IMG/VR virus record: IMGVR_UViG_3300029319_000010 | Location: 32,001 to 96,000 of that record | Direction: 5' to 3' (one strand) | Length of the DNA stretch: 64,000 nucleotides | From: a virus | Shown: in pieces, positions 25,514-60,512 of the stretch | Numbering within the stretch: the first letter of the stretch is position 1 | How the letters are laid out: each line of letters starts with the position of its first letter | Notes under the pieces: generated by a model | What the model was told of the DNA's origin: nothing | The model's input: the letters and a program-made list of their open reading frames with translations, nothing else | The model's database searches: none | Translations under genes and position numbers: made by a program

Positions 25514-26221
25514 TTACATCATGTTTCTTCTAAACATTCTGTCTCTTTTTCTATCCATACGTCTATCACGTCTTGCTTGCTGTCTCTCTGTTCTAGCATC
25601 TATTCTACCCATCTTTCTAGCTTGTCTGTCCATACGTCTATCCATTCTTCTTTCTTGTCTGTTCTCTCTTCTGTCCGCTCTACGTGCTTGTCTTTCCTCT
25701 CTTCTATCAGCTCTTCTAGCTTGTCTCATCTCTCTCATTAGGTCACGACCTTCTTTTCTAGCCGCTCTACGCATAAATCTGTTTCCTATTCTAGTTAAAG
25801 CTGGATCTGGTCCTCCCATTCCAGGTGCCATATAGTTAAATCCCATAGTTCCTGGTCCTGACATTCCCATCATATTAAATCCTGGTCTTGCATAAGCTGT
25901 TTGCATAGGGTTTACAACAGGCATTATATTTGATCCTGTACCCATGCCTGCTTCAACGGCAGAGCTTAAATCTCCAGTAGTATTATAATTAGCTATTCCT
26001 TCATCAACCATATCTGGATTTAGACCTGCATCTATTAATTCTTCTCTAATTTCTCCCGTATCTTGATACGAAGTCAATTTCTTTCTAGTTCCGCCTCCAT
26101 ACCCCATTCTTCTACGAGCTGTCCCACCAGATTTAAGATAACCCATTTTCTTTCTAACACTAGGGTCTAATGCTCTTAATCCGTTATATTTTTTACCTTT
26201 TGGTATTGCTTTAAGTGCCAT
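25514..26221 (-). CDS. Arg/Met-rich protamine-like protein
   Basis: C-terminal ~90 aa made of RRxDRR/QARR repeats; N-terminal LKSGG and MGYGGG; first gene after the late motif at 26288. Confidence 0.65.
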   Translation of the reverse strand: MALKAIPKGKKYNGLRALDPSVRKKMGYLKSGGTARRRMGYGGGTRKKLTSYQDTGEIREELIDAGLNPDMVDEGIANYNTTGDLSSAVEAGMGTGSNIMPVVNPMQTAYARPGFNMMGMSGPGTMGFNYMAPGMGGPDPALTRIGNRFMRRAARKEGRDLMREMRQARRADRREERQARRADRRENRQERRMDRRMDRQARKMGRIDARTERQQARRDRRMDRKRDRMFRRNMM

Positions 26222-26298: not shown

Positions 26299-26446
26299 AA
26301 CTCCCCCGGTAATGCAAAAATAATGTGTTTAAGGTTCTAATGGGGTTTATGTTTTTGGCTCCCCCAATAAAGTCCGGCAGTGTACTACCCCCAGGTTGTA
26401 TACTGGCAATATATATAAATCTTAAATAAATTTAAAATTAATAGCT

Positions 26447-26782
26447 ATGGCGACAATAAAAATTAAGAACCACGGTTCTCAAATATTAGTAACTGACTCT
26501 GATGTAGTCAGAGATGTGCAAGGTAATGAAAAGTGTAATGAAGAGTTTCCTTTTCTAAAAGATGTACCAATGTTAAACATTGATCCAACCGGCAAAGTTG
26601 GCATCCTTCCATTAAAGAAAGGATCCAAAATGGCTGAAGTATTTCTTGGCTTACCCAAAGGTACAAAAGTACCTGTTGAGTTAACCAAGAAAGAAATAGA
26701 AGGTGCAGATGGTAAAATCTACTACCGTGCAAGATTAATCTCTTCATACTTTACAGCAATAAAAGCAAAGGCAGATAAATAA
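26447..26782 (+). CDS. Hypothetical protein, first gene of the rightward (early) block
   Basis: 111-aa ORF with A-rich leader and a terminator-like hairpin over its stop. Confidence 0.65.
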   Translation: MATIKIKNHGSQILVTDSDVVRDVQGNEKCNEEFPFLKDVPMLNIDPTGKVGILPLKKGSKMAEVFLGLPKGTKVPVELTKKEIEGADGKIYYRARLISSYFTAIKAKADK

Positions 26783-27488
26783 ATCTGCTTTTTGCTTTAG
26801 CTTGTCTTATGGAAGCTACGGTAATATGGAACTTACTGTAGCTTTTTACCTGCTTATATAGCAATCCAGGTCCTGAACTTACGCAGAACAGTTGTACCTG
26901 CAACTATACAGCAACTTTTTTATCTTTTTGCTCCCAAAATAATTTTTGCACAGCAAAAAGTTGTGTGTGTTAGTGTGTAAAGATGAGGTATACAATACCA
27001 CATTTTACCACTTAACACCACATGGTCTAACGGAATGAACCGTATTAAATAATATAGCTATAACTACTACATCAGGCGTGCCAAACAGAAGAGTACAAGG
27101 TAGTACTCACGGATTGATAGTAGTAGTTGTAGTCTTATGTTCTCTCTCTATAGGATAAGAGACATAGTAACCGCAAGGTTATAAATTGGAATTAAATAAA
27201 TAGAGGTTTAGTTCTTCGGTAATATAAGTAAAGCACAGTAGGATGCTGTTGAGGAGTATTACTGCACCGGTCTACAAAGCTAGTAGATTGCCAGAGATCT
27301 TAGGTAGAAACACTACTTAGTCTATTAGAGATGTAGTTATAATATATGTGCACAATGTATTATAACTCTCTCTTCTTATAATCTAACAGAGTAAACTGTA
27401 TAAAAGAAACTAGGAGAAGTTAACTGCACATGGTTGCAAACATAGATGCAGAGGGTTAGGAGTAATTACCTAATCTTCTGTCTTCTCC
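26762..27488 (+). ncRNA. Candidate large structured non-coding RNA (tandem hairpin tract)
   Basis: No ORF of 60 aa or more after 26782; a dozen or more abutting stem-loops; mismatches read mostly as G-U on the plus strand; GCAA tetraloop at 27168-27181. Confidence 0.5.
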
Positions 27489-27493
27489 ATCAC

Positions 27494-27537
27494 ATAACGT
27501 CCACATACTACGTTCAAAGTATGAATTCACTTAAATT
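27494..27537 (+). repeat. 44-bp direct repeat, copy 1 (upstream regulatory element)
   Basis: 38/44 identical to 27927-27970; internal CATACT/AGTATG inverted repeat. Confidence 0.8.
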
Positions 27538-27550
27538 TAATTAACTAAGA

Positions 27551-27829
27551 ATGGAAACATATGAAATAAGAATCTATCCTCATGAATATATGGATAGAGC
27601 TAAACAAGATCACTTTGCTGCATTTAATATAGCAGATAAAATATCTAATGTAATAAAATTAATGTTAGATTCTGATACTGAAGTAAAATATATTGATGAA
27701 TCAACTAATGATAGTTATCAGTATTTAATACTTAATCCAAATAGTCTTGTTACAAAGGAACTAAGAAAGAAAATAGAATTAGTTTTTCCTAAAGTACATT
27801 TTGGAAATAGATGGAGAGAGGTAGCTTAA
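27551..27829 (+). CDS. Hypothetical early protein
   Basis: 92-aa ORF after repeat copy 1; terminator-like hairpin at 27817-27842. Confidence 0.6.
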   Translation: METYEIRIYPHEYMDRAKQDHFAAFNIADKISNVIKLMLDSDTEVKYIDESTNDSYQYLILNPNSLVTKELRKKIELVFPKVHFGNRWREVA

Positions 27830-27926
27830 TGTTACCTCTTTACTATTGGACCGTAACTCACCTATCTTTGGTTGGGCTTGATCACCTGTAATCATTGATC
27901 CAAATGACGTGAGTGAGGTCCTCATT

Positions 27927-27970
27927 ATAACGCTTGCATACTGCGTTTAAAGTATGAATTCACTTAAATT
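27927..27970 (+). repeat. 44-bp direct repeat, copy 2
   Basis: Matches copy 1; last 22 nt identical. Confidence 0.8.
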
Positions 27971-27977
27971 AAATGAT

Positions 27978-28244
27978 ATGAACTTAGGAATAAAAATATT
28001 TAATAAAGCAATGTTTAAAAGATTTATGGGATTTGCTGACCAAGGTCAAGTATTTAAAAAGGACGCTCTTTATGTACTTAGAAATGAATGGAAATATTCA
28101 GATGGAAGTACAGGAAAATTCTTTGTTACAGGTAAAATGATTTATCAAGCACTAAATGACTCTACAAGTAATGACAGATTTAGTGATATAGATATTAATC
28201 ATAAAGATTTTATTAATCAAATGATTCTAAATCTTTGCGTGTAA
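27978..28244 (+). CDS. Hypothetical early protein
   Basis: ORF; start is either 27954 (ATG inside the repeat) or 27978. Confidence 0.55.
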   Translation: MNLGIKIFNKAMFKRFMGFADQGQVFKKDALYVLRNEWKYSDGSTGKFFVTGKMIYQALNDSTSNDRFSDIDINHKDFINQMILNLCV

Positions 28245-28384
28245 AGTAACAACGTCACCACTGACGTACAAACAATACCAGTATTAAAAGTACTGTTATA
28301 GTAAACAGTTGTTATGATTGTTTATTTAAGTGGGTAGTGATTAAGGAGGGACATTATAGCTACTGTTCTTCCTTAATCCGTTTT

Positions 28385-28458
28385 GGTCTCATAGCTCAAT
28401 TGGATAGAGCAACAGCCTTCTAAGCTGTAGGTTCTAGGTTCAAGTCCTAGTGGGATCA
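28385..28458 (+). tRNA. tRNA-Arg (anticodon UCU)
   Basis: Acceptor stem GGTCTCA/TGGGATC; D-arm GCTC...GAGC; anticodon arm ACAGC-CTTCTAA-GCTGT; T-arm CTAGG-TTCAAGT-CCTAG; CCA not encoded. Confidence 0.95.
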
Positions 28459-28485
28459 CGAAATAAATTGTATAACTTAATAATA

Positions 28486-31408: not shown

Positions 31409-32514
31409 TGGAAGTGAAGGAAATATCAAGAGATAAAGTACAAGCTGATGCATTAGATGTAGCAATACAGAATGTAAGAGCAACTCTAGCAGTATCTATG
31501 GGAGTAGGTAAAACTAGAGTTGCTATTCAGCATTTAATGAAACTATATGATTCTTTTATAAGGGTGTTAGTTGTTGTACCAAAGTGGTCTGTAAAAGATT
31601 CTTGGGAAGATGAACTACAAAAGATGGGTGAGCTTAGACTTGTACATCATATAGAGTTTTGCACATACTTATCATTAAATAAAAAGAATCCAAATGATTA
31701 TGATATAGTCTATCTTGATGAATGTCATAGCTTATTAGAATCACATGAATCATTTCTCTCTGAGTTTAAAGGTAGAATACTGGGACTTACTGGTACACCA
31801 CCAAGATCAGGAGAGAAGCTAAAGATGGTTAATAAGTATTGTCCTGTTAAATATACATTTAGTGTAGATGATGCAGCTGACAATGATATACTTAATGACT
31901 ATCAGATTATAGTACATGAACTTGAATTATCAAGAGTAAAAAATGTTAAGAAGTCTACAAGAGATGGAAGAACATGGTATACATCTGAGAAAGCAGATTA
32001 TGATTACTTTACTGGTGCACTGGGAGATGCACAAACACCAAAGCAGAAACAATATTTATCTATTATGCGTATGAAAGCAATGATGGATTATCCTACTAAA
32101 GAAAATTATGCTAAAGGTATAATTAAAAATATAGGATCTAAATGTATTGTCTTTGCTAATACGCAAGCACAAGCAGATAGAATGTGTCAACATAGTTATC
32201 ATTCTAAAAACACTGCATCGGAGGATAACTTACAGTTATTTAGTGATGGTAGAATAGATAAGCTATCTTGTGTATTACAACTAAGTGAGGGAGTTACTAT
32301 ACCTAACTTACGTCAAGGTATTATTATGCATGCATATGGCAATGAAAGAAAATCAGCACAACGTATTGGTAGGTTGCTGCGACTTAATCCTACTGAGACT
32401 GCTACATGTCATATATTATGTTATAAGAATACACAAGATGTTAAGTGGGTTAACTCCGCACTTAGTTCTTTTGATGAAACTAAAGTTAAATATTATAATC
32501 CGTTAAATAAATGA
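31408..32514 (+). CDS. Superfamily 2 helicase (UvsW/ResIII-like)
   Basis: MGVGKT, DECH, TGT and QRIGRLLR motifs. Confidence 0.9.
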   Translation: MEVKEISRDKVQADALDVAIQNVRATLAVSMGVGKTRVAIQHLMKLYDSFIRVLVVVPKWSVKDSWEDELQKMGELRLVHHIEFCTYLSLNKKNPNDYDIVYLDECHSLLESHESFLSEFKGRILGLTGTPPRSGEKLKMVNKYCPVKYTFSVDDAADNDILNDYQIIVHELELSRVKNVKKSTRDGRTWYTSEKADYDYFTGALGDAQTPKQKQYLSIMRMKAMMDYPTKENYAKGIIKNIGSKCIVFANTQAQADRMCQHSYHSKNTASEDNLQLFSDGRIDKLSCVLQLSEGVTIPNLRQGIIMHAYGNERKSAQRIGRLLRLNPTETATCHILCYKNTQDVKWVNSALSSFDETKVKYYNPLNK

Positions 32515-34162: not shown

Positions 34163-34708
34163 ATGTTTAAAGAAGATATGTTGAATATGACAAATGATAT
34201 TCATAACTTTAAGAATTCATTTGAATCAAAATACAATAAAAATATAAGTATATTAGTGACAGAAAATTCTGATGTTGTTGTAAATGTAAAACAATGGCAA
34301 GATGAAATAGAGGCCATGAAAGATGCACATCAGGATAGAACTATACAGATACTAGAAAAACTAGTATTAAGTACAATGCGTACATTATATCCTGAATTTA
34401 AAGGATGGAGATCTTTAGGTAAAGATTGTAGAATAAGAGAGTTTGTAATATTTAAACAACTTTTTTGTTATATGTGTAATAGAATAGGATTTACACTACA
34501 ATATACAGGTAACCATATTAATAAACATCATGCTAGTGTATTACATAGTATTAGACAAGTAGAAGGTTTATTAGATATTGGTGACCCTCAAATGTGTGAA
34601 GCTTATAATAAATTAAAAGAAAATATTAAAAATTATGTTAGAACTATTCCAGAAGATATTAAAAGACAAGCTTACACCCAACCAATTACTTCTTTTGTAT
34701 GGGATTAA
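34163..34708 (+). CDS. DnaA C-terminal (domain IV)-like HTH protein
   Basis: RIREFVIFKQLFCY...TLQYTG...KHHASVLHSIR resembles the DnaA-C RDHTTVxHA signature. Confidence 0.7.
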   Translation: MFKEDMLNMTNDIHNFKNSFESKYNKNISILVTENSDVVVNVKQWQDEIEAMKDAHQDRTIQILEKLVLSTMRTLYPEFKGWRSLGKDCRIREFVIFKQLFCYMCNRIGFTLQYTGNHINKHHASVLHSIRQVEGLLDIGDPQMCEAYNKLKENIKNYVRTIPEDIKRQAYTQPITSFVWD

Positions 34709-48584: not shown

Positions 48585-50489
48585 ATGAATCACTGGGTAA
48601 TGGATTATGAAACCCTAGTGGACTGTTTTGTTGGTGTATTTAAACACTACAAGACTGAAGAAACTAAAATCTTTGCAATATGTAAACAACGTAATGATTT
48701 TAGTAAGTTCCTAGAGTTTCTTAAAGAAAATACGGAAAATAAAGAGTGGCATATATCCTACAATGGATTAGCATTTGATGCACAGATCACTCATTATATT
48801 ATAAAACATTACAAAGATTGGAAATCAATGAAAGGAGAAGACATTGCTCGTGAGATATATTCTTATGCACAGAGTTGTATAGATAAAGCTCATAGTGGTG
48901 AGTTTCAAGAGTATCCTGAATGGCATATGTGTATTAAACAAATAGATGTATTTAAATTAAATCATTGGGATAACATGGCCAAGAGATCTAGCCTTAAATG
49001 GATAGAGTATACTATGGACTGGGATAATATCTTAGACATGCCTATACACCATGATACAGAGATAAATACACAGGATCAGTTAGATTTAGTTATTGAATAC
49101 TGTATTAATGATGTAGAAGCAACTAAGGAAATCTTTAATAGATGTAAACCTTTGATTGCATTAAGAAAGAACTTAACTGAGAAATATAATATTAATTTAT
49201 TTAGTGCATCTGAACCAAGAATAAGTAAAGAAATCTTTGCTTACTATCTTAGTAAAGAACTAGACATGCCACGGTATGAAGTTAAGAAGTTAAGAACATT
49301 TAGAAATGTAATTAAAGTTAAAGATCTTATACTAGACTATATTAAGTTTGATACAGTAGAGTTTAAATCTTTACTAGAAAGGTTTAGGACAGTTGAAGTT
49401 AATCCTAATTATACTAAAGGTGGATTTAGATCTTCGGTTGTATATAAAGGTGTAAAGACTGACTTTGGGTTAGGTGGTGCTCATGGTGCTACTGCACCTG
49501 GAGTGTATGAGTCTGATACTGAGAGAGTTATAATGTCTTCTGATGTTACTAGCTTCTATCCTAACTTAGCTATTGTTAATAAGTATGCACCGGCTCATAT
49601 ACCAAAAGAAAAGTTTTGTGAATTATATCAATGGTTCTTTGATGAAAGAAAGAAGATACCAAAGAGTGATCCAATGAACTATGTGTATAAAATTATCTTA
49701 AACTCAACTTATGGGTTAAGTAATGATAAAAACTCTTTTCTATATGATCCGCAGTTTACTATGTTTATTACTGTTAATGGTCAACTTACACTAATGATGT
49801 TATATGAAATGATTATGACTAGGATACCAAATGCTGTAGCACTTATGCAAAATACTGATGGCGTAGAAACTATCATACCACGTGAGCACATAGATGCTTA
49901 CATGGAAGTTTGTAAAGAGTGGGAGCAGATAACCGGTCTTAATCTTGAGCATGATCAGTATAGTAAACTAGTGTTAGCTGATGTTAATAACTATATAGCA
50001 GTAGATACTAATGGTAAGTCTAAATGTAAAGGTAGATTTGAATATGAAGGTTTAGCTCTTCATAAAAACAAGTCTAAACTGATCATTCCAAAAGCATTGT
50101 ATGCATACTTTGTTGATGGAACTTTACCAGAACATACAATAAAACATAATAGAAATATTTTAGATTATTGTATTGGAGCTAAATCTAAGGGTGCATGGAG
50201 ACAGCACTCTGTATATGTTAAAGATGGTGTTGCACATAAAGATGTGCTACAAAAAATTAACAGATACTACATCTCTAACAAAGGTTGTAAGATAGTTAAG
50301 ATAAATAAAAGTGATAATAGAGAAATTCAATTAGAGTCTGGACAATGGGTTCAAACTGTAATGAATAAGATAGAAAATAAAAAGTGGTCAGACTATGACA
50401 TTAATGAGAAATATTATCTAAATGCAATTGAGAAAGAGATTAACAATATAATTGGTGTGAAAAATAATCAATTATTATTGTTTGAATAA
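48585..50489 (+). CDS. polB: Family B DNA polymerase (crAss-type)
   Basis: ExoI DYET, ExoII YNGLAFD, ExoIII YCINDV; motif A DVTSFYP, motif B KIILNSTYG, motif C NTDG. Confidence 0.92.
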   Translation: MNHWVMDYETLVDCFVGVFKHYKTEETKIFAICKQRNDFSKFLEFLKENTENKEWHISYNGLAFDAQITHYIIKHYKDWKSMKGEDIAREIYSYAQSCIDKAHSGEFQEYPEWHMCIKQIDVFKLNHWDNMAKRSSLKWIEYTMDWDNILDMPIHHDTEINTQDQLDLVIEYCINDVEATKEIFNRCKPLIALRKNLTEKYNINLFSASEPRISKEIFAYYLSKELDMPRYEVKKLRTFRNVIKVKDLILDYIKFDTVEFKSLLERFRTVEVNPNYTKGGFRSSVVYKGVKTDFGLGGAHGATAPGVYESDTERVIMSSDVTSFYPNLAIVNKYAPAHIPKEKFCELYQWFFDERKKIPKSDPMNYVYKIILNSTYGLSNDKNSFLYDPQFTMFITVNGQLTLMMLYEMIMTRIPNAVALMQNTDGVETIIPREHIDAYMEVCKEWEQITGLNLEHDQYSKLVLADVNNYIAVDTNGKSKCKGRFEYEGLALHKNKSKLIIPKALYAYFVDGTLPEHTIKHNRNILDYCIGAKSKGAWRQHSVYVKDGVAHKDVLQKINRYYISNKGCKIVKINKSDNREIQLESGQWVQTVMNKIENKKWSDYDINEKYYLNAIEKEINNIIGVKNNQLLLFE

Positions 50490-55275: not shown

Positions 55276-56349
55276 TTAAAGTATGATATAGTTTATTCCA
55301 AACTTGAAATCATGCCAGTCACGGTTCCAGTATTTGTTATATTTTCCTTCAATAAAGATACCTAGGTTCTTATTGATCTTATAACCAAATATTAAACCAC
55401 CTGAATAATCTATCCAATTGCCACCATTAAAATTATGATATGAGTACTCACCCCCTGTATCCAAATGCACCGGTAGTAGGTTCGCCCAAGAATGAAACCA
55501 TATTGTTTTAGTGTAGTGATAGTAGTCTAAACCAACTACTAGAGAATGACACCACTGAACAGGTAATGCATCCTTTTTTGATTTCACATAATCATTAAGA
55601 ACTTGGGGGACCACTACCTCTTCCCATACTTCACTACTTGTAGCCACGACTGCTCCACTAGGGTCTAAGTAGCTTATTCCTGTTGGGTCAAACCCAATTG
55701 TGTAGCCTTCCTCTAAAGCAAGGTTTGTGTAGTGTATGTTTCCATTAGATAGTACCCACTCAGCTAAAGGGTCATAACCGTAAGGTTCTGATATTCTTTG
55801 TACAGCTCCTGCAGTAACTGAAAGTTTTCTACCTATCTTTTGTCTATATCGTTGTGACGCTTCCATGTATTCTACATCAGCAAAGCCGTCTTGTAAGTAC
55901 TCTATCTTAACCACCCATCTATCTGCTAAGTATCGTAAAAAGTGATGTTGGTCTACATAAGAGTTACCTTGTTGTCTTTTATAATCTGCCTCAAACAAAA
56001 ACTCAAATCCTCTAGTTCGTCCAATAGTAGCGGCATCAGAGTAAGAAGTTTCTGTACCATCTTTGAATGTATTAGCTTTATTCTCGTATCCAAATCTTTG
56101 TATCTTTCTTACACCTACAGTAAAAGCATAGTCAAATGGAGTTTCTATTACATCGGTTTGAAGTCCATCTAATATAGAATATGTATTCTGATCTGAAATA
56201 GAGGTACCACCATTTACTGCAGCGTAGAATGTAGAGAACTTAAAAGTTTTCTTAAGTTCTGTTTTAAACTTGCTATCCTGAGCACAACACTTTTTAGGTG
56301 CTACACAAGACAATAATAGTAATAATATGGTTAGTAGTATTTTTTTCAC
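55276..56349 (-). CDS. Putative outer-membrane beta-barrel protein with signal peptide
   Basis: MKK + hydrophobic signal; amphipathic aromatic-rich strands; C-terminal FKFGINYIIL beta-signal-like strand. Confidence 0.65.
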   Translation of the reverse strand: MKKILLTILLLLLSCVAPKKCCAQDSKFKTELKKTFKFSTFYAAVNGGTSISDQNTYSILDGLQTDVIETPFDYAFTVGVRKIQRFGYENKANTFKDGTETSYSDAATIGRTRGFEFLFEADYKRQQGNSYVDQHHFLRYLADRWVVKIEYLQDGFADVEYMEASQRYRQKIGRKLSVTAGAVQRISEPYGYDPLAEWVLSNGNIHYTNLALEEGYTIGFDPTGISYLDPSGAVVATSSEVWEEVVVPQVLNDYVKSKKDALPVQWCHSLVVGLDYYHYTKTIWFHSWANLLPVHLDTGGEYSYHNFNGGNWIDYSGGLIFGYKINKNLGIFIEGKYNKYWNRDWHDFKFGINYIIL

Positions 56350-59300
56350 AACTTAATTATTTTCTTGGTTATTCTTATTTTATCATATGTAATAATCAAA
56401 TTATACATTCCATCGGGATAATCTGATAAATCTATTCTTTTAATATTATCTGTTTGTATAATCTCTCCTACCATATTATATAGTTCTACATCAACATCTA
56501 GTCTTGTTTCTATAGTAAATGTATTTGCTGTAGGATTGGGGTATACAATTATATCACTACCTGATAGCTCATCTAAGTTAACTGGCCATCCTTCTTCACA
56601 ATAATTATACATAGATTGACAGGTCTCATCCCATACCTCAGTACAACAATAGTTATCTATATCTATAACCCAAGCATAACAAGGATCATTTAACCAATAA
56701 GGTTCTCCAGGTCCACCATAGCAACCAGCATCATAAAGACAAGTGGTATTATCTGGTAAGTTAACTAACGGATCATAGTTATATGCATTAGGATCAGCAC
56801 ATCCTTCTATTATAACTACACAACTACCATCATCAAAACAAGCATCTTCATCATAGTTTAGTGCAGTACTATCTGTACAACCTCCAACATAACAACATGA
56901 ATTATCTAAAGTATTTGCTAACGGATCAAAGTTAAGAGCCATTGTGTCTGTACAACCATATACAAATTCTATACACGTACCATTATCTGTATTTGCTAAT
57001 GGGTCATAGTTAAATGCAGTAGAATCCATGCAACCATATACATAAGGTATACAGTTACCGCTATCAGTATTTGCAGTAGAATCATAATTAAACATGGTAG
57101 AATCCATACATCCTATAATAACACCTTCACAGCTTCCATCATCTGTATTGGCATCTGCATTATAGTTAAAAGCCTCTGGATTGGTGCAACCTAGTATAGG
57201 GTATATACATCCATTATTAGTATTTGCTAACTCATTATAATTTAACGCAGTTGAATCTGTACAACCAATCACAACATCAATACATGAGCCGTTGTTTGTA
57301 TTTGCTGTGGCATTAAAATTAAATGCACTTGGATCTGTGCATCCATATATAGCATATATACACCCTGAATTAGTATTAGCGGTAATTTGATAATTTAAAG
57401 CTGTATCATCAGTGCATCCTATTACTACTGGTTGACATGAATCATCATCAATATTAGCATTTACATTAAAGTTAAATGCTGTTGGGTCAGTACATCCTAG
57501 AACAGGATATACACAACCTGAGTTAGTATTAGCTAGTTGATCATAGTTTAGTGCTGTATCATCTGTACACCCTATAACAACATCAACACAACTATTGTCA
57601 GTAGTATTAGCTTGTGGATTATAGTTAAATGAATCAGGATTTGTACAACCATAAACAAATGAAATACATCCTACATTTGTGTTAGCAGTTTCATCATAAT
57701 TATATGCTTCAGGATCCGTACATCCATATGCAAACTCTATACATGATCCATCATCAGTGTTTGCATTAACATTAAAATTAAACATTGTAGGATCCATACA
57801 ACCATATACAAATGGCTCACATGGATTATTTTCATCTGCTGTATTAGCTTCTGCATTATAATTAAATGCTGTTTCATCTAAACAACCGTATATAAATGGT
57901 TCACATAAATTATTATTTGTGTTAACATCTACACCATTTATTCCTGTTAATGGATTTCCTACTCCATCATTATCATAATCATTATATGTATAAGAGTTTG
58001 GATTTAAACAACCATATACAAAAGGATAACATGAGCCATCATCGGTATTAGCTAGCTCATTATAGTTAAATTGATTTGACTGTGTACAACCTTCAACAAC
58101 TGGTTCACAACTATCATCATCTACATTTGCATCTGGATAGTAATTAAATGCTTCATCATCTGTACAGCCATACACTATTTCTATGCAAGAGTCATTATCT
58201 GTATTAGCGTCTTCATCATAGTTAAACGCAGCAGAGTCTGTACAACCATTAATAACAGGCTGACATGATCCTGGTTCTAGAGTATTTGCTTCTTGATCAT
58301 AATTAAATGCTAATGGGTCTGTACAACCTAATATAGTTGGTATACAAGGATCTGTTTCATCTTCAACAGCTACTTGATTAACTGTTGCTAGTTCATTATA
58401 GTTATATGCAGTTTCATCTATACAGCCGAATATAGCATATACTTCACATGTTCCATCATCAAAATCTGCTTCTATTGCATTTTGTTCTATATAATTATAA
58501 TATTCAATATAAGCTGCATCAGTACAACCAGGGTTGTAATAACAGTCATTACTGCTTGTATTTGCTATTGGATCAAAGTTAACTGCTTCTAAATCTAAAC
58601 AACCATAAATTTTAGGAATACAGTTATTACCACACAGAGCTTGACCTTGATATAGAAAGTTGTATTGATTATAAGAAAGTATTGGATTTGTATAAGGGTT
58701 AGTTCCACCTTCTAATATAATGTCTCCTATAGGGTTAATTATTTCAAAGCTGCATTGTTCTGTTGTTTGTTGAGATTGACCAAAAGAATAAAAATAAGCT
58801 TTAACCATTTCACTGGTATTAAAATTAATTTCAGTTTCAAAAACTGTTTGATCACTTTGTAATGTAAAAGGCCCCCACCACTGATCACCTTGTGTAACTA
58901 CTAAAAATGAACCTGCCCAACCATTATCAGCCCAATCCGTCAATCTTAATGTATTTGTACAATTAGGGTTTGATAGTTGTGTATTTGCATCAGGGTTAAA
59001 ATTAAAAGCATCAGGGTTTATACAGCCAAATATTCTTTCTGTTTCACATGATCCGTCATCTTCATTAGCATAAGGGTTAAACTCTAAATACTCATTGTTT
59101 GTACATCCTTGTACAGTCTCTGGTGCACATGGTGTTACTTGACCAACATCAATTATAAGCTCTCCAAAATCACCTATACCTTCTGATATTGTATCACCAC
59201 ATTCTGTATATACCGCCCAAGTACCATCTATACCACCCCATTGAGCTCCACCAAGACCATCTCCATATGAGTCTTGTAACCAAAACATTATGTTAGTATT

Positions 59301-60512
59301 GTCATCAATGCAAGTTTGATATTCTACTGTAGTACCTACTGGCACACCACAATACGTTGTGTTATCATTTACTTCTGCTAAAGGTGTTCCATCACCATAC
59401 TGATCATATATTATCCAACTAGTTTCACAGCCATACTGATCCACCATTATTTCAACTGTAACTAAAGTTTTACCTGCTGTGCATGTTATATCTCCTCCAT
59501 TACATGAACCATCGTCTGTAGTTGCTGCAGGGTTATAACTAGCTGCTTCTGGGTCTGTACAACCTGGTATGTTAATACAAGATCCATCATCAATACCTGC
59601 TTCTTCATTATAGTTTAATGCATTTGGGTCTGTACATCCATAAATAAAAATACAAGGATCTACCTGCCATGTTTCTCCTACTACAGCATTTACATTTACA
59701 CCTGGAGTATTTGTATTAGGGTTTCCATCTGCTTCTGCTTGTGTTGATACTACATAGATTAATGTTGTGGGTGAATTACAACCTCCACCATCAAAAGCTA
59801 CAGCATCTATAAACCATTGTTGTCCATTATCACCAACATATATTCTTGCACCAATTTGTAGAATATCTTGATATTGTAAATAAAATTCGGGATCAACTCC
59901 AAAGTGAGTATTAGTAAAGGATACCAAGTTACATGTTGAACCTGGTGTTATAATGCCTGTTGGTATATCTGCTGCAAGTGGATTATAATTAAATGCAAAC
60001 TCATTTATACATCCATAAATATATGTACAACTACCATCATTAATTAAGGCATCTTCGTTAAAGTTTTCTGCTAATTCATCTGTACAACCTTGTAAAGGAG
60101 GAGCACAAGGTGCTATAGTTAATGTATCTACTAAAGATATTGGTCCGCTAGGTTCTGTTGTTAGTACTGAATCTTCATAAAAAGCACCTTCTACATACAT
60201 TAAACTATCTTGACAAGCATTACTTATTGAAAACCATCCATTATTACCACCCCAAAAAGATCCAGCTAAACCATCACCATAAGCATCATTTAATGAAATA
60301 ATATATTCACCTGCTGGTATACTTATTATAGTATCATGTAAAAATTCTGGCAATAAAAATGGTTCATTTACAGCTATTGCAGCACCGCTAATATCATAAA
60401 GTTCCCATGATGTTTCACCAGGATATTGGTCTGTTTGTAACTGTATATGTATCCAAGATTCTTGAGTAAATACTAGTATAGGAACTAGTAATAAGAATAT
60501 TAGTTTTTTCAT
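56346..60512 (-). CDS. GCTD-repeat protein with Sec signal and T9SS type-A C-terminal sorting domain
   Basis: Signal MKKLIFLLLVPILVFT|Q; about 29 GC[TM][DN]xxAxNYxxxANTDDGSC units; C-terminal IIVYPNP...LYNMVG...IDLSDYPDGMY...TKKIIKL. Confidence 0.85.
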   Translation of the reverse strand: MKKLIFLLLVPILVFTQESWIHIQLQTDQYPGETSWELYDISGAAIAVNEPFLLPEFLHDTIISIPAGEYIISLNDAYGDGLAGSFWGGNNGWFSISNACQDSLMYVEGAFYEDSVLTTEPSGPISLVDTLTIAPCAPPLQGCTDELAENFNEDALINDGSCTYIYGCINEFAFNYNPLAADIPTGIITPGSTCNLVSFTNTHFGVDPEFYLQYQDILQIGARIYVGDNGQQWFIDAVAFDGGGCNSPTTLIYVVSTQAEADGNPNTNTPGVNVNAVVGETWQVDPCIFIYGCTDPNALNYNEEAGIDDGSCINIPGCTDPEAASYNPAATTDDGSCNGGDITCTAGKTLVTVEIMVDQYGCETSWIIYDQYGDGTPLAEVNDNTTYCGVPVGTTVEYQTCIDDNTNIMFWLQDSYGDGLGGAQWGGIDGTWAVYTECGDTISEGIGDFGELIIDVGQVTPCAPETVQGCTNNEYLEFNPYANEDDGSCETERIFGCINPDAFNFNPDANTQLSNPNCTNTLRLTDWADNGWAGSFLVVTQGDQWWGPFTLQSDQTVFETEINFNTSEMVKAYFYSFGQSQQTTEQCSFEIINPIGDIILEGGTNPYTNPILSYNQYNFLYQGQALCGNNCIPKIYGCLDLEAVNFDPIANTSSNDCYYNPGCTDAAYIEYYNYIEQNAIEADFDDGTCEVYAIFGCIDETAYNYNELATVNQVAVEDETDPCIPTILGCTDPLAFNYDQEANTLEPGSCQPVINGCTDSAAFNYDEDANTDNDSCIEIVYGCTDDEAFNYYPDANVDDDSCEPVVEGCTQSNQFNYNELANTDDGSCYPFVYGCLNPNSYTYNDYDNDGVGNPLTGINGVDVNTNNNLCEPFIYGCLDETAFNYNAEANTADENNPCEPFVYGCMDPTMFNFNVNANTDDGSCIEFAYGCTDPEAYNYDETANTNVGCISFVYGCTNPDSFNYNPQANTTDNSCVDVVIGCTDDTALNYDQLANTNSGCVYPVLGCTDPTAFNFNVNANIDDDSCQPVVIGCTDDTALNYQITANTNSGCIYAIYGCTDPSAFNFNATANTNNGSCIDVVIGCTDSTALNYNELANTNNGCIYPILGCTNPEAFNYNADANTDDGSCEGVIIGCMDSTMFNYDSTANTDSGNCIPYVYGCMDSTAFNYDPLANTDNGTCIEFVYGCTDTMALNFDPLANTLDNSCCYVGGCTDSTALNYDEDACFDDGSCVVIIEGCADPNAYNYDPLVNLPDNTTCLYDAGCYGGPGEPYWLNDPCYAWVIDIDNYCCTEVWDETCQSMYNYCEEGWPVNLDELSGSDIIVYPNPTANTFTIETRLDVDVELYNMVGEIIQTDNIKRIDLSDYPDGMYNLIITYDKIRITKKIIKL
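56735..58610 (-). repeat. Tandem array of ~25-28-aa Cys-containing (GCTD) protein repeats
   Basis: About 23 consecutive units in the translation, plus three isolated pairs nearer the N-terminus. Confidence 0.85.

Follow-up and report, generated by a model that had tools for sequence, protein, structure and literature searches.

Gene layout and fold strength of the tract

The virus record IMGVR_UViG_3300029319_000010 is 114 kb long, and the 64,000-nucleotide (nt) part of it analysed here (positions 32,001 to 96,000; hereafter the window, from whose first nucleotide all coordinates are counted) contains a gene-free, highly structured tract built around a conserved core at 26960-27190. The leftward late genes of the window stop at 26221 and the rightward genes begin at 26447 with an open reading frame (ORF) of 111 amino acids (aa), which marks a gene-strand switch. 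The tract starts 340 nt past this switch and is placed between the 111-aa ORF and a 92-aa ORF (27551-27829). The replication module is located further 3' and comprises helicases, a DnaA_C-like helix-turn-helix protein, a DnaB-like helicase, a primase and a family B polymerase (a weak match at 48585-50489). The cumulative GC skew has its minimum at 26-27 kb, the same spot as the gene-strand switch. The major capsid gene of the window matches the Crass_capsid (Crassvirus capsid) family, the nearest cultured phages being very distant (capsid identity of at most 28%), and the proteins homologous to those of the window derive from Tara and other marine samples.

A preliminary description of this stretch had proposed that positions 26762-27488 are tiled wall to wall by hairpins whose G-U pairs favour the plus strand. 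All of the stems that it listed are present in minimum-free-energy (MFE) folds, namely those at 26811-26846, 26924-26960, 26962-27022, 27054-27140 (with GAGTAC/GTACTC inside), 27168-27181 (TAACC-GCAA-GGTTA), 27218-27263, 27335-27367 and 27413-27488 (with a 13-bp inner stem). The plus strand of 26783-27550 is free of any ORF of 33 aa or more and folds at -221 kcal/mol. Its dinucleotide shuffles lie at -171 +/- 6 kcal/mol, which gives z = -8.4, compared with z = -3.7 for the minus strand of the same segment. The tiling breaks down over 27200-27320, which as a whole does not differ from its shuffles (z about 0), though one covarying hairpin lies inside it. The strand asymmetry likewise holds for one portion of the tract, from 27050 onward, where three segments gave plus/minus z-scores of -4.4/-2.6, -2.8/-0.9 and -3.3/-0.5, and not for 26765-27050, where the three corresponding pairs (-5.2/-4.5, -2.7/-3.4 and -3.2/-4.0) reveal no plus-strand bias. 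Since the bias starts at 27050 and the preceding conserved block has DNA-type features (see below), RNA-level selection is suggested to begin near ATATAGCTAT (27052-27061), an onset that would be consistent with a transcription start at that place.

The tract matches no catalogued RNA family, as the preliminary description had supposed. When the window and 14 related loci were scanned with the Rfam 15 covariance models at gathering thresholds, among them those for tmRNA (transfer-messenger RNA), RNase P, group I and II introns and 6S RNA, only transfer RNA (tRNA) passed, and in a permissive Rfam scan of 26300-27900 the best E-value was 0.18, far under the gathering score. ARAGORN found no tmRNA in the window, and when 50,697 phage records were searched by blastn with the tract, none matched. 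Retron, diversity-generating-retroelement and CRISPR-mimic readings were also considered and set aside, as there was no reverse-transcriptase match among the ORFs scanned and no repeat array was noticed in the tract.

The conserved core and its relatives

Protein-based searches initially yielded only phages that are 92-98% identical to the window overall, so it says little that the first 300 nt are nearly identical among them. More distant loci were reached using a profile built from the 235-aa protein that is transcribed divergently (42-59% aa identity). In these loci blastn aligns window positions 26844-27260 at 65-85% identity, and the 111-aa ORF is only 35-37% identical as a protein and goes undetected by blastn; the two blocks of the core, A and B, are kept and are more conserved than the adjacent coding sequence. 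Two invariant motifs from the resulting alignment were used as exact patterns in viral contigs: a 17-mer of block B was found in 38 contigs, and a downstream 17-mer, part of a promoter-like box described below, in 26. A looser pattern based on CCAC boxes, which gave mostly chance matches and was used only where nhmmer confirmed the locus, added more than 20 further divergent members, termed clade 2, in which the 17-mer of block B does not occur in its exact form. In total, the core is present in more than 45 marine viral contigs and is single copy; block A, block B and the promoter-like box each occur once in the 114-kb genome.

The synteny around the core is constant and runs from leftward genes through a rightward gene of ~95-160 aa, the core, variable small ORFs and usually a tRNA to conserved early genes. 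An ORF in this size range lies directly 5' of the core in nearly all related loci (more than 40), and most of these ORFs belong to the family of the 111-aa protein. In an alignment of 33 sequences, similarity starts abruptly at 26960, and all of it is gone 5' of block A.

Block A (26960-27063, defined by a 31-sequence alignment) opens with GT repeats (26960-26979) that mirror three downstream CCAC boxes at 26998, 27008 and 27018, spaced exactly 10 nt apart. Its 3' part contains an A/T-only stretch (27043-27056) and ATATAGCTAT. The CCAC boxes are invariant columns in the 31 sequences of clade 1 and the spacers between them are variable, while an A/T-only stretch of 14-20 bp precedes AGCTA in all members. 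The preliminary description had taken a long irregular stem at 26965-27021 for selected RNA structure, an interpretation that finds no support: RNAalifold returned no consensus structure for the block A alignment, the window's stem can pair in only 63% of the alignment cells with weak covariation, and 29 of 42 sequences have a slightly more stable fold on the minus strand (in the window, z = -3.2 for plus and -4.0 for minus). Because there is no consensus fold, little covariation and no plus-strand bias, and because the boxes recur every 10 nt, block A looks like protein-bound DNA. Invariant tetramers that return every 10 nt, with variable sequence in between, are what contacts along one side of a DNA duplex would produce and do not suit an RNA helix, and block A thus has the appearance of a putative protein-bound control region, either a promoter/operator or an origin. 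Two other views of the block were rejected. A reading frame across it is open in one relative (L019), but the variation has no codon periodicity and the frame of the window has a stop. A small hairpin that follows the third CCAC box and precedes the A/T stretch seemingly covaries, yet many members lack it or have it in a shifted register.

The long hairpin (27054-27140, plus strand) has a conserved base, AGCTATAAC / GTTATAGT, and an exchangeable interior. In clade 1 its length ranges from 61 to 178 nt and the interiors are unrelated between lineages, with a median identity of 30% for the 5' arms. All 31 distinct versions nevertheless fold as hairpins (median z of -2.6), and in 30 of them the plus strand is the more stable, by a mean of 4.8 kcal/mol over the whole set (Wilcoxon p = 2e-6); G-U pairs number 107 on the plus strand versus 53 on the minus strand. 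Among the five versions akin to that of the window, 4 of the 30 consensus pairs have changed on both sides, and one pair occurs as A-U, G-U and G-C. An arm-swap test of the hairpins, in which the own arm was best in 5 of 31 cases (mean -8.7 vs -5.7 kcal/mol), was poorly designed and is not relied on. In most members of clade 2 a 45-nt segment replaces the long hairpin, and two members carry an inserted hairpin. The hairpin of the window also occurs in three phages without the core (L063, L066 and L073), directly after the promoter-like box.

Block B is a 65-nt segment (27126-27190, plus strand) conserved in independently fetched loci. It consists of a pyrimidine run, the loop CTCTATAGGATA and then AGAGACATAGTAACCGCAA, and its core, TCTATAGGA, is invariant in the set of loci studied. 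In constrained folds, the pyrimidine run and a purine-rich strand can close the loop by a hairpin of 7-14 bp. The outer, closing helix would be GGTTA:TAACC in 4 distinct sequences and GGGTA:TACCC in 9, and one sequence with TACCC carries GGTTA upstream. The window departs from this, as its TAACC is paired with a GGTTA further downstream, across the GCAA loop mentioned above.

Downstream modules and flanking genes

The sequence 3' of the core splits into alternative modules that are present, absent or reordered among the phages. The first in the window is a two-helix hairpin with the conserved loop AGGATG (27218-27263, plus strand), found in five lineages; 6 of its 15 consensus pairs have changed on both sides, and many of its pairs are G-U, which would be A-C on the other strand. 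The selection on a folded plus-sense strand that the preliminary description had invoked is accordingly upheld for the long hairpin and the module at 27218-27263, the two with compensatory changes, and not for block A. A resemblance of the AGGAU loops to a CsrA sponge was considered and set aside, only two such loops being present in the tract; we know of no CsrA in Bacteroidota.

A 13-bp hairpin with a pyrimidine-rich tail (27335-27378, plus strand; z = -2.8 for plus and -0.9 for minus), possibly a terminator or insulator, lies just 5' of the promoter-like box TAATCTAACAGAGTAAACTGTATAAA (27379-27404, plus strand); in relatives, too, a hairpin stands before the box. The box is typically found after a hairpin and 40-60 nt (~45 nt) before an ATG, in many contigs without blocks A and B, and is a putative promoter. 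It is followed in the window by an exchangeable module, GGAGAAG/CTTCTCC around a 13-bp stem (27413-27488, plus strand; z = -3.3 vs -0.5 for the segment 27405-27550), which is also present in L061 and stands 5' of the box in L034. Since the long hairpin follows the box in phages lacking the core and the module at 27413-27488 switches sides, the hairpins are portable units just 3' of promoter-like sequences.

The tract ends with a leader on the plus strand (27494-27550, detected as a 92% repeat and by pattern search) that terminates in TTCACTTAAATTTAAT before the 92-aa ORF. A second copy (27937-27974) precedes a 96-aa ORF starting at 27954; the two copies are 92% identical and the small ORFs behind them unrelated. 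The duplicated portions (27494-27541 and 27937-27974) end in TTCACTTAAATT(T/A)AAT. In four relatives (L035, L036, L045 and L054) this TCACTTAAATT leader occurs within ~30 nt after block B and is followed by an ORF. Searches of PHROG and Pfam with the flanking small ORFs were empty.

On the other side of the core, the 111-aa gene (26447-26782, plus strand) is the first rightward gene and is kept in synteny in more than 40 loci. Its product has no sequence match in Pfam, PHROG or the PDB. The top structural matches of its AlphaFold model (pLDDT of 77) are S1/OB domains with Z of 4-6.2, and folds of the OB type found in single-stranded DNA-binding proteins follow at E ~0.1; because these scores are under the level of kinship, the likeness is only a hint of a nucleic-acid-binding partner. 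The gene is also a hot spot of divergence, its protein being 57% identical to that encoded at 3989-4327 of L005 within flanking DNA that is 92-98% identical. A hairpin resembling an intrinsic terminator, GCAGAT/ATCTGC followed by TTTTTGCTTT (26771-26795, plus strand, from the MFE fold), spans its stop codon; it is common to close relatives only, and the terminator-like match at this hairpin was called on the minus strand. Two further hairpins (26811-26846 and 26924-26960) and the spacer between them make up a lineage-specific segment (26811-26960) outside the conserved family, which folds without plus-strand bias and was found by BLAST only in L003, L004, L005 and L022, the loci 92-98% identical overall.

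Several observations concern the wider genome. The only tRNA found by ARAGORN in the window is tRNA-Arg(TCT) at 28385-28459. It is preceded by 140 non-coding nt (28245-28384), and the segment ~28242-28460, tRNA included, keeps an identity of 80-95% in relatives that share 42-59% identity in the neighbouring proteins; the conserved 140 nt may be a promoter or a processed tRNA leader. A 1388-aa phage protein encoded on the minus strand (56346-60512) has a C-terminal type IX secretion (Por) sorting domain, which points to a phage-encoded secreted or surface protein. As this phage protein ends in such a domain, a Bacteroidota host is indicated.

Interpretation and comparison with known systems

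In our best reading, the tract is a chain of separate parts that heads the rightward early and replication genes of a marine crAss-like phage. With moderate confidence, we regard 26771-27550 as a control region followed by a transcribed, modular and structured leader or non-coding RNA. The first part would be the terminator of the first early gene together with the two lineage-specific hairpins. The second, block A, would bind a protein through CCAC boxes set one DNA helical turn apart, and rightward transcription would start at or near the A/T stretch ending in ATATAGCTAT. In the third part, from ~27055, constraint on a plus-sense RNA would take over: a long 5' hairpin, its interior swapped between phages, would be followed by block B, presenting the invariant loop CUCUAUAGGAUA, and by more exchangeable hairpin modules. 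In the fourth part, a second promoter-like box and one more hairpin would come before the leader that belongs to the first small ORF. The RNA modules may act as stabilising or insulating 5' structures, or may be released as abundant early non-coding RNAs. The conservation, single copy, synteny, strand bias and compensatory changes are direct results of the analysis; transcription, its start and ends, protein binding and function are all proposed here from comparison of sequences and their predicted folds.

Several results weigh against this interpretation. By inspection, block A has no match to the Bacteroidota -33/-7 promoter consensus and no good sigma-70 -35 box, and the scan that called the terminator-like match yielded nothing notable either. 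RNAalifold applied to a MAFFT alignment of block B gave no consensus structure, and since it gave none on this plain alignment the block B helix is provisional; it rests on constrained folds and on one covarying position, with perhaps 2-3 independent events. The covarying modules have five sequences each. Furthermore, most of the loci were fetched by exact motifs, and in those loci the fetching motif is conserved by construction; the unbiased sets are block B in the protein- and CCAC-fetched loci and the CCAC boxes in the block-B-fetched loci.

The main rival takes the core (26960-27190) for a lytic replication origin, which is compatible with transcription through the region; we consider it a serious possibility, if a doubtful one. 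The phased CCAC(A) boxes would then be initiator sites, perhaps for a protein resembling DnaA domain IV, the A/T stretch would be an unwinding element, and the strand-specific hairpin would act as a priming signal in single-stranded form or represent an origin transcript. The single copy of the core agrees with this proposal, as do the three boxes exactly 10 nt apart, the mirrored GT repeats and the A/T-only stretch of 14-20 bp. In L040 and L108 the first box reads ATATCCACA and agrees with the DnaA box TTATCCACA at 8 of 9 positions; those of the window, in contrast, match it only in CCACA (5 of 9). A candidate phage replication initiator is encoded by a 181-aa ORF (34163-34708, plus strand), which is placed just 5' of a winged-helix ORF and the DnaB-like helicase, near the primase, in the same module as the weak polymerase match at 48585-50489. 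Its match to Bac_DnaA_C (E = 3.4e-5) lies under the Pfam threshold, at 24.2 bits vs a cut-off of 31.5. The core is located at the minimum of cumulative GC skew and at the switch in gene orientation, a place analogous to that of origins predicted in prototypic crAssphage (bioRxiv 10.1101/2024.03.20.585998), but the skew and the gene strand switch at one and the same spot, so the skew cannot count as separate evidence for an origin. An origin would also leave unexplained block B, the RNA-type compensatory changes and the portability of the long hairpin behind promoter-like boxes in other phages.

A bolder and rather unlikely proposal is that block A, the long hairpin and block B together constitute a new class of phage element. 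This could be an early RNA-protein particle, or an origin fired via a structured plus-strand transcript with the loop CUCUAUAGGAUA, and the swappable hairpins would serve to tune it or act as decoys. The core is nearly always found beside a small gene, and in most loci the predicted fold of its product resembles S1-type RNA-binding OB domains.

Alternatively, the hairpins could be transcription punctuation and recombination scars between small, fast-evolving early cassettes, without an RNA product having its own function. The terminator after the first gene and the hairpins directly 5' of the promoter-like box in many loci are in line with this idea, as is the turnover at the locus: small ORFs are gained and lost among relatives (L005 lacks both), the order of modules changes, and many metagenome contigs break at the tract, as expected of a hypervariable spot. 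We nevertheless judge this explanation distinctly unlikely. Blocks A and B outdo the neighbouring coding sequence in conservation across lineages, the long hairpin survives complete sequence turnover as a hairpin with no U run behind it, and the loops CUCUAUAGGAUA and AGGAUG are invariant.

The preliminary description had favoured a single large structured non-coding RNA of the GOLLD/ROOL class spanning the whole of 26762-27488. The overall z of -8.4, with the plus strand ahead of the minus strand, the lack of ORFs and the lack of an Rfam match are what such an RNA would display, but we now find one ~730-nt molecule very improbable. Only 26960-27190 is conserved across the family, the first 180 nt being kept only in near-identical phages; the modules vary and are reordered, and relatives have a leader and an ORF within ~30 nt of the core. 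Most of clade 2 lacks the long hairpin, block A is not under RNA-type constraint, and the tract has a promoter-like box and terminator-like hairpins inside it. The further suggestions of signals for a virion RNA polymerase (N4-type) and of a position at the leading genome end found no support, because blocks A and B and the box are single copy, the small hairpin of block A is absent from many members, and six near-complete records, one of them with terminal repeats, place the core at no fixed distance from the contig end (0.2, 15.7, 25.8, 42, 59 and 101.7 kb). The replication signal that the preliminary description also offered lives on in the origin reading of block A.

The crAss-like phages rank with the most abundant of all known phages, yet the regions that control their early genes and the origins of their replication await characterisation. 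The analysis delimits an element that is conserved, as a single copy, across more than 45 marine crAss-like contigs. In it a DNA box is followed by an exchangeable RNA hairpin and then by an RNA segment whose core is invariant. The analysis also reveals hairpin modules that move between promoter-like boxes in different phages. It offers defined places at which RNA ends, origins and binding could be assayed, as well as a seed alignment for a new RNA family.

The tract can be set beside several known systems. N4-type hairpin promoters are several copies of a short hairpin (a 5-7 bp stem with a 3-nt loop) located before early genes. In bacterial oriC and the lambda origin, initiator boxes lie beside an AT-rich unwinding element, and oriF and oriG of T4 are activated by transcription. 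The tract shares with origins of these types the phased repeats in both orientations, the A/T-only stretch, the single copy, the position at the head of a replication module and possibly transcription. It differs from them in that its boxes are only DnaA-box-like, and in that the downstream RNA-type covariation and block B are foreign to such origins. Like GOLLD and ROOL, it is a highly structured, non-coding stretch of several hundred nt in a phage genome; neither was matched in the Rfam scan, which included both, and the tract consists of exchangeable modules around a ~240-nt core rather than one multi-domain fold.

By position, the closest known analogue is the Cellulophaga crAss-like phage phi14:2. 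This phage produces abundant intergenic RNAs of unknown function from the g004-g005 and g005-g006 junctions, which are early, rightward and persistent (Drobysheva et al., bioRxiv 10.1101/2020.03.07.982082). We found nothing relevant in the literature on crAss001 transcription and crAss-like transcriptomes; the only published transcript map, that of phi14:2, left the abundant early non-coding RNAs unexplained. There is no sequence similarity between the two regions: sensitive blastn and motif searches found no tract motifs in phi14:2, a weak nucleotide match was AT-rich noise, and neither the ORFs at 27551 and 27954 compared with g005 nor the 111-aa ORF compared with g004 showed similarity. The capsid of phi14:2 is ~24% identical to that of the window over 40% of the length, and its two intergenic stretches show no unusual degree of structure (z = -0.3 and -1.2). 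One of them also holds a tmRNA gene, unlike the window: the g005-g006 'long non-coding RNA' (L025, NC_021806, 4031-4502, plus strand) contains a tmRNA for which ARAGORN predicts the tag peptide GSSVQKLAMVA and which scores 46 bits in Rfam vs a gathering score of 47 (E = 1.4e-16); it is not annotated in the RefSeq stretch examined. What the two phages do share is a marine crAss-like genome in which the rightward early genes have, close to their start, ~700 nt free of genes, and phi14:2 thus offers a precedent for the early intergenic RNAs proposed in our favoured reading.

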